Of a DNA stretch of 52,192 bases, positions 47,354-52,183 are shown in pieces. Position 1 is the first letter of the stretch; each line of letters begins with the position of its first letter. The position numbers and the translations under genes were made by a program. Below the pieces are notes generated by a model. That model ran no database searches and had not been told where the DNA came from. It saw only the letters and a list, made by a program, of their open reading frames with translations. This stretch comes from Candidatus Omnitrophota bacterium (GTDB taxonomy: Bacteria > Omnitrophota > Gorgyraeia > JABMRN01 > RBG-13-46-9), in contig JADHYM010000004.1 of assembly GCA_016782445.1 (NCBI GenBank), positions 1 to 52,192 on the forward strand, written 5' to 3'.

Positions 47354-50300
47354 ATGATTTTGATAATGACAAATAAGCAGCGCAAAATATTAGTCAGATT
47401 CATCACTGCGCTACTCGTATGTTTTTTTATTATGAGTGATGCGTTTGCACTTGCGCCGCAGTATGTCGCAGACACCCCCGCGTTCCGCCTAAAATACTTA
47501 AGAAATCATCTCGAGAAGTCCCTTGATACCCAATGCGCCCGGACACCGGAGAAAAAAGCCTTCATGGAAGAATGCGGCGACCCTGAAGCGCTCCTTCTTT
47601 CAACCGGTAAGCGTCTTGTAGCTGAAAGGGCTTGGAACGACGACCTGAGATTCGTGCGCGCCAATATTCACGAGGATATAGAAATCCTCATGCAAATCCT
47701 CCGCGAGAAAGACAAATATCGATATTACGGCATACGGGACCTTGTCTTAAGAAAACTCCCCATGGAAGGGCACACACTTGATACATCTGAAAGATACGTA
47801 AATCATATCATTGCTATGGTCTTTGAATGGCTGACCCTCGTTGAAGCCGAAATTATTGATGAAGCCAAAATCCCTGAGCCCTATGCCGCTCTTGTGTGTA
47901 CGCTTAAAGGGGAGATAAGGTCAAGGAAACACAGCTATTTCTTAAGCGACTTCTGGGATCTCAAAAAGAGGCAGGAAAAAATAAAAGACGCGATAAAAGA
48001 CGGAATGAGATTTTATCAAACTGCATCTGAAAAATCAGGTACTAAACAAAGCATTGCAGTTGAAGACAATGTTGATAAACTTATTAGATGGCATCGTACA
48101 GGTAAGGGGTTTGAGGTAGGAGACATGATAGAAATTCCTTACCAGATAGGAGGCAAAAAAGAGTTTAGAAGAAAACATGGATATATAAGTTTTATTTTAG
48201 ATGTTCCTGGAAAAGAGGGAGATACAAGGGAGATCGTTTTTGTAGGTGAAAATGACCCGAATCATGGATTTGTTGTGAACATATATTTAGCCGATGATTA
48301 TAAAAATAAGTCAAGCTGTGAGCCAATCGCCACGTATAAATATTACGAATATAAAGGAAGTACAGGGAAATGGGTTACACAGGCTATTTCTATACCGCTA
48401 GGCAAACTTGATGTAATAAAAGCGCTGAAGGGTGAAAGGCTTAAAGTTTTTAACAGGCCAACAAGAGTCAAGATCGATCAAAGGCCTCAAGCTTATGTCT
48501 GTCGGTTCAGATTCATGGGCGGAACGAGCATTGCTGAGGACGAACATTTGTGTTTACCGGTGGAATGCGCGAATCATTTTAGAGAGAAAGGAAAGTATGT
48601 AATAGCTCGTGTTGAATATGACGAAGAGAGGGGGCAGGGCGTAAGTTTTTACTTCGAAAAAGATTATAGACCTAACATAAAAAGTAAACGTGCAATATTA
48701 ACAGAGTATGAAAATTCATCGAAGATAGGAAGGGCTTTTGCTGCCTTTTTAGAGATAAAAAAATACCAGAAAGGCCAAGCGCCAAAAAAAGTTAAAGAAC
48801 AAGCCTTGGGAATGAACCTGTATACCAACGCAAAAGGAGAATATGAGGCCAGGGTTATGCAAGGCAGGCAAGTCATAAGATTTCTTCTTTCGAAAATTGC
48901 TGATGAATTTTTTGAGAAAGGCGATACTATAAGAAAGATTTTAAGCGCATGCTTTGCCTATCATCCTGATTACGGAAGGTATGTTGAAGTCAGAATATAC
49001 CCGAGACGAATTTTAGAGGGCGCTTTAGTGAAGCTCGAAAAATATATTGAAAAAGCGGATATCGAAACAAGAAAAAGAAGGAGTATTCAATCAAGCATCT
49101 TGGATCTTTTTAAGTTGATGCCGTGTTCGACACCAAAGGAAATAGCGCGAGGTGCGGCAGTTTTAAGCCGAAAATTAGAAAGGCATAATAATGAAGATGT
49201 AATAAAAGATACCTTGGCCAGGCTCAGGATTTTTGTTAAGGCCGCCGGTAGCGACCGTATTTCTGATAGGGAAATAACAAGAGATGGAATTCTTTTGGCA
49301 AAGCGCTATTACCGTAAAGAATGCGGCAATCTCCTGACAGAGCTTGAAACAGTAAAAATGATGGACTACATTTTGGGAGATAGAAATATATATGGCAAAA
49401 AAATAAAACCTCCAACTCGCTTTAATCTAGGGTTGGTGAATAAAGACGGAAGGGCGCATATTGTTTTCGGATCAAAACAAATTTTTATGCATGGATTTAA
49501 GGGTTTAGAAGGTAGAGAAATTATTTTAGTACGCGTTCCTGATGAAAAATTTGAATTTGTTTTTCATGCATATGATACCGAAGATTACAAAAATAACCCC
49601 GACGGAGCAGAAATTAAGCGTGTACTTATAAGAGATCTTAATTCCGGACTTCTTATACCGATCGAGCGAAAGGACGTGTATTACGCAAAAGAACTTATTG
49701 AAAAAGGTATGTATCGCAGGGCTTTGGAGGTTTTAGAGGCTATTCCGGTAAAAGGCATACCGGTATTTAAATTGAGAAGACAGGCACGCGAGGGCCTTCG
49801 TCGGAATGAAAGTGCTGCTGAAAACCCGGGTTTGCTTAATGAAGACGAAAGACTGAGAAATCATTCCTATATCCTGGCCAGGCTTATATGTTCGGGTAAA
49901 TCCAGAGAAAGCGTTGAAAGATATATGAAATTTTTTCCGCTGACTACCGGCGAATCCCCGGACAGAAGAGTGATCGCCCATCTGAGGACTTATTTTGTAG
50001 AATTCATACAGGGAATAGCGCGGGACGGCGAGACAATCCAGGTTATTACAAACTTAATGATTAACCTGGATATGGAATCCGACCTTCCGGCGCAGGCGCA
50101 TGTAAATATAGCGGTAATTGAAGCACTTGCGGAGTCATCTGATGAGTATAAGACCGAAGCCCTTGCTCTGGAATTATCACGCTTTTTGGATTACGAAGGA
50201 ATACTTAAAGACGAGACTTTAAAGGTGCTTCAAGATTTCTTTTACTCTATTCCGGATAATGATAAGGTATTTTTAACTCCTGAATCCGAAAATGGCAGAA

Positions 50301-52183: not shown

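Follow-up and report, generated by a model that had tools for sequence, protein, structure and literature searches.

A leader-bearing 1616-residue protein of Omnitrophota with a diverged sigma-70-derived module and a recurrent C-terminal module

The window analyzed here, a 52,192-nucleotide stretch of an Omnitrophota contig, ends in a long gene encoding a modular protein with a leader, an internal cargo and a conserved C-terminal module (C-module) (Table 1). The frame is open throughout and, on inspection of the ORF, upstream extension is impossible. The likely starts are M8 (47354) or M12 (47366); a public copy of the protein (P0002) begins at M8, and another public gene call begins at M34, downstream of the leader. 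The stop codon (52181-52183) lies 9 b from the contig end, and contig breaks interrupt long genes in several contigs of the same genome, as might be expected if the gene were an assembly chimera. Against this, a contig from run X2 spans 46150-52192 with a single difference and continues 193 b past the contig end, and every module junction is bridged by contigs from X6, a second study, and from runs X2 and X5. An assembly chimera, named in the initial annotation as one way in which its reading could fail, is thus largely refuted; the ORF is intact and the gene is real.

Table 1. Features of the 1616-aa protein and its gene, with positions in the window.
Feature	Residues (aa)	Positions	Strand	Remarks
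Whole ORF	1-1616	47333..52183	+	1616 aa counted from the first ATG
Leader		47354..47449	+	Basic n-region KQRK..R, 12-aa hydrophobic core FITALLVCFFIM, then SDAFA
N-module	40-245	47450..48067	+	Conserved compact domain after the leader; contains helix HEDIEILMQ
Beta-rich repeat region	246-860	48068..49912	+	Recurring ..E.D.NHG.V.N.Y...DY......P..TYKY.. units
Pre-sigma segment	861-984	49913..50284	+	Precedes the sigma module in relatives
Sigma-70-derived module	985-1335	50285..51337	+	Regions 1.2-2.4, region 3-like, region 4.2-like HTH
Winged helix-turn-helix	1336-1395	51338..51517	+	Pfam AbiEi_4 match below cut-off; AF2 topology
Long helix and alpha/beta C-terminal domain	1396-1616	51518..52180	+	Ends ...ELLESA

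The leader, which reads MTNKQRK-ILVRFITALLVCFFIM-SDAFA followed by LAP, displays all the features expected in the sequence of a Sec/SPase I leader: a basic n-region, a hydrophobic core within the usual range of about 10 to 15 residues, and small residues at -3 and -1 (A-F-A before L). The putative SPase I site follows A39, with L40 opening the conserved LAP. The same pattern is seen in the leaders of the genome's own secretin, BamA-like and receptor-like proteins, and the genome encodes the Sec/SPase I pathway (SecY, E 3e-117; Peptidase_S26, E 2e-49) as well as two secretins. In the AF2 model the leader forms a separate helix, followed by a low-confidence linker and then a confident domain. 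The Sec-type signal proposed in the initial annotation is consistent with all these features and is conserved across the family: 57 of 80 Met-started relatives of at least 600 aa carry such a leader, and it is kept in 20 further loci from phylum genomes. The remaining 23 of the 80 lack it, although several of these may be fragmentary, starting as they do within a known module. In 52 of the 57 leaders positive charge is higher on the N-flank than on the C-flank (mean, +2.05 versus -0.63), and the 1616-aa protein contains no second hydrophobic span and no further transmembrane helices. Under the positive-inside rule, one N-terminal span whose N-flank is basic places the C-terminal bulk outside. 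Export of the 1616-aa protein is likely on sequence grounds and we consider it moderately probable, with both cleavage and export resting on rules read by eye. Crude hydropathy, used to assign the membrane side in multi-span relatives, was dropped because its counts were unreliable, some spans being borderline and one of these falling within a sigma module. When the neighborhoods of the genome's three family genes were read by eye, no secretion or delivery genes were seen beside them, and the neighbors look like housekeeping genes.

An exhaustive representative search found 125 relatives (126 sequences with the query), and a homologue search at near lengths returned the protein's own copy only. 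The relatives with taxon labels comprise four contigs from four “Candidatus Omnitrophota” MAGs and three contigs from a single MAG with the label Planctomycetia. The family is confined to a few Omnitrophota lineages, with the N-module present in 25 of 401 phylum genomes and the C-module in only 14 of 201. Relatives reach 6375 aa in length, and the cargo of those bearing leaders includes REC, ATP-binding, GNAT, methyltransferase and SNF2 domains. Examples behind leaders are SNF2 in P0012, GNAT in P0047, P0058 and the genome's own paralog C4, methyltransferase in P0032, and PPDK_N together with REC in P0038, P0057, P0060 and P0079. The domain tally includes REC (11/35), PPDK_N (9/35), GNAT, methyltransferases, radical SAM, SNF2 and kinases. 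Sigma modules occur in 41 long proteins, some with two to four and none with more than four, and most of these proteins begin with an export-type leader. The sigma module adjoins REC in P0096 and an XRE-type HTH in P0052. In addition, some small, seemingly leaderless relatives appear to combine REC with the C-module: P0048 has a Pfam REC match, whereas P0042 and P0088, which have no Pfam match, were assigned by eye.

A sigma-70 segment, originally recognized by eye at about 50327-50720, is supported by significant profile matches far beyond chance. Residues 994-1134 (50312-50734), corresponding to regions 1.2-2.4, match RpoS/RpoD models, including NCBIfam TIGR02394 (E 3.6e-7, the match falling far short of that model's cut-off), RpoS in PDB (7vf9_F; E 2.4e-5 in a single-sequence search), and phage rpoD (tblastn, E 3e-5). 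A leave-one-out profile built from 25 relatives, with the query excluded, scores aa 997-1314 at E 5.8e-50, and alignment profile A1, in which the query is included, matches PDB SigA (7l7b_F) over regions 1.2-4.2 at E 2.6e-59. With the embedded-module profile, the genome's own 283-aa sigma and its RpoD reach E values of 5e-60 and 1e-53, respectively. Pfam Sigma70 models gave no match at E<=10 to the whole protein or to aa 970-1436; in the own-genome scan PF04542 matched four other genes and PF00140 two others, and neither matched this one. Sigma70_r2 is passed by 25 of the 26 aligned members, the 1616-aa protein being the exception. Further downstream, MTQHDMALRLGFSRR (aa 1259, 51107) aligns with region 4.2 (TLEE.G...G.SRERVRQIE) both in the relatives and in the genome's RpoD. 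The resemblance to region 4 suggested in the initial annotation therefore holds at the level of alignment, but not as an intact HTH, which is split by a 14-aa insert. The signal, the sigma segment, the HTH and the winged helix are all found where that annotation had placed them.

Sequence comparison makes the sigma homology of the module secure and indicates that it descends from a primary-type (group 1/2) sigma-70 factor. In the tree, a branch with SH-aLRT 99 sets 41 of the 43 embedded modules apart from free sigmas, and the module of the 1616-aa protein sits on a long branch (1.44 versus a median of 0.92). This long branch, together with the failure to match Pfam, would suit a functionless domain decaying in a fast-evolving filler protein. 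On the other side, the frame remains open over 1616 codons, the closest relative, P0004, is alignable over aa 874-1614 (38% identity, E 1.8e-109) with the insert at the same site, and the embedded clade has invariants of its own (the G-E of LGEI, the F of FSTY and a near-invariant Cys). We regard an origin as artefact or relic, by assembly or by decay, as extremely improbable. As for other sources, PHROGs and tblastn searches against phages gave matches confined to sigma region 2, and a phage origin of the non-sigma modules is unsupported.

The conserved residues of regions 2.3-2.4 serve promoter opening and -10 reading in sigma factors. In the 1616-aa protein the region 2.3 Trp pair is lost (FSTYATWWIRQAI becomes FASYAGVAVRRAL; WW to VA), and further changes in regions 2.3-2.4 turn a Q into R, the R of IRIP into T and the N of NLRLV into C. 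The T lies in region 2.4, at a position where 15 of 25 relatives carry R, and the N is kept by 24 of 25. A 16-aa insert interrupts region 2.2, and the 14-aa insert lies within the recognition helix of region 4.2, between SRR and the RQIE-equivalent. In addition, two region 2.2 positions before G-N, which we take to be contacts to beta', vary across the embedded clade. The sigma-70 core named in the initial annotation is thus not borne out as a working one, and these losses and inserts make it unlikely that the module directs a host polymerase; transcription hijacking by a working sigma is unlikely as well. Many embedded modules nevertheless keep canonical residues, with the two Trp positions retained in 10 and 12 of 25 relatives and region 4 passing Pfam in 10 of 26 aligned members. 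Near-canonical cases are P0020, which passes Pfam regions 1.2, 2, 3 and 4, and P0029, whose region 4.2 ends canonically. A complex prediction for a piece of the genome's own beta' clamp helices and module residues 10-165, run without controls, scored 0.01, which gives no verdict and weighs neither for nor against binding.

These observations bear directly on the idea of an exported effector whose sigma core binds the RNA polymerase of a host or prey cell and redirects or blocks transcription. Leader and sigma homology are both present, near-canonical relatives exist, and Omnitrophota have been described, in the available text of Seymour 2023, as host-dependent or predatory. Set against this are the lost Trp pair, the T for R and C for N in regions 2.3-2.4, the two inserts, and the variable positions before G-N, along with the absence of a known route into another cell. 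We consider such a polymerase-directed effector very unlikely. The residues that open and read promoters being lost, the module is most likely a binding unit and is unlikely to act as an initiation factor.

The sigma module is followed by a winged helix, as proposed in the initial annotation for about 51326-51502 and in keeping with the AF2 topology and a Pfam match below cut-off. The Pfam model AbiEi_4 matches aa 1350-1389 at E 1e-3 to 4e-4 (19.4-20.8 bits, below the 25-bit cut-off), and the AF2 model (pLDDT 85.7) shows a helix-strand-strand arrangement at aa 1365-1388, with a two-strand wing after the helix. A Pfam scan of the whole protein and of four pieces yielded only this match and noise. 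Together with the long helix and the alpha/beta C-terminal domain, the winged helix forms the C-module of the family, which is found in 87 of the 126 sequences and ends the chain in 77 of 77, the last residue being Ala in 61 and Val in 12. The C-terminal part is shared with the genome's own paralog C15 (E 7e-21), and its AF2 model alternates alpha and beta elements with pLDDT above 90. Foldseek gave no PDB match to the C-module at E<=1e-3 (best, 1.8e-2), and the C-module profile gave none among PDB sequences at E<=1. In the wide VIA search the highest Z was 6.2, obtained with halves of periplasmic-binding/LacI folds, which the tool rates as common. Despite the lack of a significant PDB match we claim no new fold for the C-module.

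Sigma, REC, SNF2, radical SAM, GNAT and methyltransferase domains are cytoplasmic elsewhere, which argues that the bulk of the protein stays inside. The protein may be a membrane-tethered, cytoplasm-facing regulator or scaffold, anchored by its N-terminus, with the pseudo-sigma and the winged helix binding the cell's own polymerase, an anti-sigma-like partner or DNA. The cytoplasm-type cargo of the family, the sigma modules beside REC and an XRE-type HTH, the many embedded modules that are still canonical, and the position of family genes among apparent housekeeping genes all speak for such a regulator. A 2026 preprint (10.64898/2026.06.07.730766), in its available text, also reads many long Omnitrophota proteins as anchored in the inner membrane with cytoplasmic content. 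The leader argues the other way: its basic N-flank and single span, seen with the same polarity in 52 of 57 leaders, predict that the bulk lies outside, its core of about 12 residues and small -3/-1 residues resemble the genome's own cleaved-type leaders, and a second hydrophobic span that could return the chain is missing. The closest models for such a regulator would be PhyR-type sigma mimicry and the membrane-associated pro-sigma-K and pro-sigma-E. Overall, we judge a tethered regulator possible but somewhat unlikely.

Alternatively, the protein could be exported and act at the producer's own surface or periplasm, with the sigma and winged-helix parts now doing no more than bind, for example, extracellular DNA or a surface partner. 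Pfam finds no ATP-, SAM- or acetyl-CoA-requiring domain in the 1616-aa protein, in agreement with a role outside the cytoplasm, and giant Omnitrophota proteins have been proposed, in the available texts of Seymour 2023 and West-Roberts 2023, as surface or adhesion proteins. However, among leader-bearing relatives that share the N- and C-modules there are SNF2, GNAT, methyltransferase and REC domains, for which no cofactor supply exists outside a cytoplasm. Nor was an adhesin-type Pfam domain found in the 1616-aa protein. A surface or periplasmic role appears unlikely to us.

The reading that we prefer combines export with a binding role. The leader would take the chain through SecYEG and be cut after AFA39, and the sigma-derived part would then work outside the producer's cytoplasm. 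The pseudo-sigma would keep its fold without the residues that open and read promoters, and with the winged helix it would most probably serve as a unit that binds either DNA or one of the partners of a sigma factor, for instance polymerase or an anti-sigma-like protein. Up to this point, that is, without delivery into another cell, we see the whole reading as evenly balanced. Where the unit would act is a more tentative matter: the domains of leader-bearing relatives need ATP, SAM, acetyl-CoA or phosphotransfer, so that the cytoplasm of another cell, host or prey, would be the likeliest site, an assignment we hold as doubtful. The broadest version, in which a lineage of Omnitrophota exports, between a common Sec-type leader and a common C-terminal module, long proteins with cytoplasm-type regulatory cargo, including a clade of sigma-70-derived modules that would serve inside host or prey cells as sigma decoys or DNA binders, is speculative and, in our estimate, rather improbable.

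Several known systems share part of this architecture. RpoD/SigA and RpoS, the group 1/2 sigma-70 factors, are homologous across regions 1.2-4.2; unlike them, the present module is preceded by about 1000 residues of a leader-bearing 1616-aa protein, and the embedded clade carries the motifs T.LGEI, which replaces an acidic stretch, and F.K.C...GIDP. The 1616-aa protein differs from them further in its lost Trp pair, its two inserts and its lack of a Pfam match. PhyR, an anti-sigma antagonist of Alphaproteobacteria, has by available accounts a sigma-like domain that has no sigma role and binds its partner by mimicry, and among the relatives named here P0096 alone likewise joins REC to a sigma module. 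PhyR is small and cytoplasmic, whereas the 1616-aa protein has a leader, no REC (no Pfam Response_reg match) and a group 1/2-type module; the sigma-like domain of PhyR is ECF-like. In Bacillus, pro-sigma-K and pro-sigma-E are membrane-associated sigma precursors freed by proteolysis. Their pro-sequence of 20 to 30 residues directly precedes the sigma, while here about 950 residues lie between and the sigma is decayed. Type IX secretion (T9SS) substrates and autotransporters share the architecture only (a Sec-type leader, variable cargo and a conserved C-terminal domain, here at the extreme C-end in all sequences scored). Their C-terminal domains are beta-sandwiches or beta-barrels, whereas the model here predicts a winged helix and alpha/beta elements, and the present C-domain also occurs in small, seemingly leaderless proteins; membership of either class is ruled out by the alpha/beta and not all-beta C-domain of the AF2 model.

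A further parallel is with the giant and long proteins of the same phylum, which, by the available descriptions, combine an N-terminal signal peptide or transmembrane helix with cytoplasm-type Pfam content, such as the methyltransferase, GNAT, REC, radical SAM and PPDK_N domains shared with the present family. They differ in length, at 10-147 kaa against only 1.6 kaa here, and the present family is defined by its common N- and C-modules. The initial annotation knew of no described system of this kind. That statement is weakened insofar as the puzzle of signal peptides on long Omnitrophota proteins with cytoplasm-type domains is already in print (10.64898/2026.06.07.730766). It stands for the sigma modules in the main texts of the West-Roberts 2023 and 2026 preprints, where “sigma” occurs 0 times; the supplementary domain tables may list Sigma70.

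Sigma factors are taken as free cytoplasmic subunits. The present family implies either that a parasitic or predatory nanobacterium sends out transcription-type parts, or that the rules for reading signal peptides fail family-wide, and both outcomes bear on the role of the long Omnitrophota proteins with “cytoplasmic” domains behind signal peptides. If decoys did act inside host or prey cells, secreted mimics of sigma would be seen here for the first time, and with them a new class of effector, acting between bacteria or from bacterium to archaeon. Unlike the giants of 10-147 kaa, the 1.6-kaa member is small enough for expression, localization and testing.

The remaining segments precede the sigma module. 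The pre-sigma segment, found in 39 of the 126 sequences, has no Pfam match, and neither has the beta-rich repeat region, whose units form 70 stretches in 27 of the 126 (local jackhmmer); an ESM Atlas search with aa 246-900 returned no usable match. The N-module is common to paralog C4 (E 8e-15) and is modelled by AF2 at a pLDDT of 86.1, rising above 93 for model residues 42-215. Its fold has no significant match by Foldseek (best E, 0.82) or VIA (best Z, 4.7). Zincin-type peptidases recur in the weak fold rows of the N-module, and HE[DE]xE lies on a long helix; the motif varies in alignment A8, and the resemblance is a hint only.

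The sigma segment claimed in the initial annotation is present in the focal protein: residues 994 to 1134 match models of RpoS and RpoD, with hits to NCBIfam (E 3.6e-7; 30 bits, far below the cut-off), to RpoS in the PDB (E 2.4e-5), and to a phage rpoD by tblastn (E 3e-5). At E<=10, neither a direct search nor a genome-wide scan with the Pfam sigma models, suggested there as a check, matched the protein; the four region-2 and two region-1.2 genes that the scan did find lie elsewhere. Aligning focal residues 985 to 1335 with 25 relatives (alignment A1) yields a profile whose hits include solved SigA (E 2.6e-59, spanning regions 1.2 to 4.2); 86 chains score E<=1e-3. 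Pfam Sigma70_r2 is passed by 25 of the 26 aligned members, the sole failure being the focal module, and the r4, r1.2, and r3 models by 10, 10, and 3, respectively. Searched against all ORFs of the genome, a profile built without the focal protein recovers three proteins only: a 283-aa sigma (5e-60), RpoD (1e-53), and the focal protein (5.8e-50; aa 997 to 1314). The sigma module of the focal protein is real, and the sigma modules share one origin.

In a quick maximum-likelihood tree (52 rows, unrooted, domain hits not spanning most of the module excluded), a branch with an SH-aLRT of 99 sets 41 of 43 embedded modules apart from the remaining two and from the nine free sigmas. Two motifs, T.LGEI and F.K.C...GIDP, are peculiar to the embedded clade. 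Several numbered relatives carry two sigma modules (P0003, P0013, P0023, and P0035), three (P0044), or four (P0046), and copies within a single protein are sisters. The focal module pairs with that of P0004 (97) and has a long branch (1.44 versus a median of 0.92).

Read against the genome's own RpoD and the relatives, the focal copy shows alterations in five regions. It reads CLRLV in region 2.1 for NLRLV (N kept in 24/25 relatives), carries a 16-aa basic insert in region 2.2 between GN and GL, which are otherwise directly adjacent, and in region 2.3 has FASYAGVAVRRAL for FSTYATWWIRQAI, whose Trp pair is kept by 10 and 12 of 25 relatives. In region 2.4, T stands for the R of 15/25 relatives, and the region 4.2 recognition helix, unbroken in RpoD and the relatives, is split by a 14-aa insert. 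We take the altered region 2 to 4 residues to have roles in promoter opening and reading. The “sigma-70 core” originally described thus holds as homology from region 1.2 to 4.2, whereas the focal copy is altered in each of regions 2.1 to 2.4 and interrupted in 2.2 and 4.2. These differences indicate that its sigma module is decayed: it retains the sigma fold yet is unlikely to function in initiation. A working sigma hijacking a host polymerase is very unlikely for the focal copy. The simplest role to assume for the module would be the binding of DNA, polymerase, or an anti-sigma-like partner, a kind of partner binding described for the sigma-like domain of PhyR.

An exhaustive search with aa 417 to 1616 (E<=1e-3) returned 126 representatives, one being the focal protein's own copy and most having 1000 to 6375 aa. 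Iterative searching within these 126 sequences (the focal protein plus 125 relatives) found the C-module in 87, the sigma module in 50 (41 of them >=600 aa), the pre-sigma segment in 39, the beta-rich repeats in 27, and the N-module in 17. Named relatives come from four “Candidatus Omnitrophota” MAGs and one MAG labelled Planctomycetia, and the focal protein has two paralogs in its own genome.

The genome (1.0 Mb, 37 contigs, 86% complete) contributes the window as its entire contig C23, which ends only 9 b past the focal stop codon. An in-frame stop immediately 5' of the ORF excludes a longer form; the public copy of the protein starts at M8 (1609 aa). One contig of sequencing run X2, which is from another study and may itself be the source of this DNA, spans 46150-52192 with one difference and extends 193 b past the window. 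Run X5 contributes contigs over 46269-48385 and 48884-51174, and X6, from a different study, contigs over 49882-51135, 51176-51681, and 51675-52192. All module junctions are therefore bridged, and the ORF is not the assembly chimera that the initial annotation had considered. Run X1 has a pair of short contigs (114 and 223 b) that each start at the final 30 b of the window (52163-52192); this pair suggests that the assembly graph forks right after the focal gene, a possible reason for the contig's end at 52192. The repeat region (48001-50000) has a G+C of 0.39 versus 0.41-0.50 in the rest of the window.

Features of the focal locus and of leader-bearing ORFs in the same genome
Feature	Location	Strand	Length	Content
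Focal ORF	window 47333..52183	+	1616 codons	
Upstream neighbor, divergent, 113 b from focal ORF	window 46008-47219	-		predicted GAF-like N-terminal part and diguanylate cyclase (RYGGEEF, read from translation)
Paralog	C15		1836-aa open frame	C-module in common with focal protein
Paralog	C4		runs off contig	leader and N-module in common with focal protein; GNAT domain
Leader-bearing long ORFs (by eye)	C27, C13 (two), C15, C30, C4, C2, C8, C19, window 47333-52183		689-3837 aa each	basic-hydrophobic leader
Second-leader-type ORFs	C13:20216-32938, C8:1-2202, C19:23327-25423, C30:39193-43908			leader ending ...FLWQD(V/I).WA(N/Y)P(D/E)

The proposed leader is likewise there, as MTNKQRK, ILVRFITALLVCFFIM, SDAFA, and then LAP. 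Counting for export, it resembles the leaders of the genome's own secretin, BamA-like, and receptor-like proteins, is kept in 20 additional loci of phylum genomes, and occurs in 57 of 80 relatives (Met-started, >=600 aa), with the N-flank the more positive one in 52 of these 57; the genome also encodes SecY, an S26 signal peptidase, and two secretins. Counting against export, the cargo behind relatives' leaders is of cytoplasm type (SNF2 helicase, GNAT, SAM methyltransferase, PPDK_N with receiver domains, and HAD; among 35 relatives, receiver domains in 11 and PPDK_N in 9), a few small receiver-like relatives apparently lack a leader, and no secretion genes adjoin family genes in the neighborhoods of this genome. 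Also on that side, the ESM Atlas entry begins at residue 34 (window 47432), read as Met; this M34 call leaves the leader out, and the leader's conservation among relatives favors the longer form. A preprint on much longer Omnitrophota proteins (10.64898/2026.06.07.730766) notes the same tension. On balance, the leader points to a protein that is probably exported across the inner membrane; a cytoplasm-facing tether, which would suit the cargo, is the less likely alternative. Given export, the cargo of the family speaks for a site of action within the cytoplasm of another cell, a reading that overall is somewhat less likely than not; action at the surface appears unlikely.

In the N-terminal model (pLDDT 86.1), residues 7-32 of the leader form a helix of their own, connected through a linker of low confidence near the LAP motif to a compact domain modeled with confidence. 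H-E-(D/E)-x-E-x-x-M-Q lies on a long helix of the N-module (window 47600-47700, aa ~108-125; N-module alignment A8). Among sampled phylum genomes, whose kin are not independent, the C-module occurs in 14/201 and the N-module in 25/401, the latter confined to three families of one class. Structural matches to the N-module are weak (best Z 4.7), with zincin-type peptidases recurrent among them, and this module could represent a metalloprotease-like domain, decayed or unusual, immediately after the leader.

The winged helix could also be recovered, as a sub-threshold Pfam AbiEi_4 match (aa 1350-1389) and a clear helix-wing topology in the C-module model (pLDDT 85.7, pTM 0.84), where a long helix and an alternating alpha/beta domain accompany it. 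All four elements named in the initial annotation are present. Foldseek gave 0 matches to the C-module fold at E<=1e-3, a wide structural search reached only Z 6.2 at best, and a sequence-profile search of the PDB returned no match. In 77/77 cases with an aligned end, the C-module lies <=3 residues from the protein end, which reads ...(L/I)L..A-COOH (final residue Ala in 61/77 and Val in 12/77; focal, window 52166-52180). The conserved final residue suggests that a free C-terminus is recognized. The ending may resemble C-terminal degradation tags that end in AA.

Sigma-70 domains and long Omnitrophota proteins with leaders are already known; what is new is a distinct embedded sigma clade within a leader-cargo-C-module family. 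The word “sigma” has 0 occurrences in the main texts of both Omnitrophota giant-protein preprints (West-Roberts 2023; 10.64898/2026.06.07.730766) and, in Seymour 2023, occurs once, as a supplier's name; literature searches, supplements aside, turned up no account of a sigma domain following a signal peptide. A c-di-GMP link of the focal locus is possible given its divergent neighbor, and PilZ genes are described after giant genes in West-Roberts 2023.

At least 10 long ORFs of the genome start with similar leaders, several extending past contig ends; together they amount to ~16,700 aa, roughly 5% of the genome. The second leader type, with its own ending in place of ...A|LAP, has no Pfam match among the ORFs scanned and no module in common with the focal protein, and is also found in relatives P0073 and P0101.
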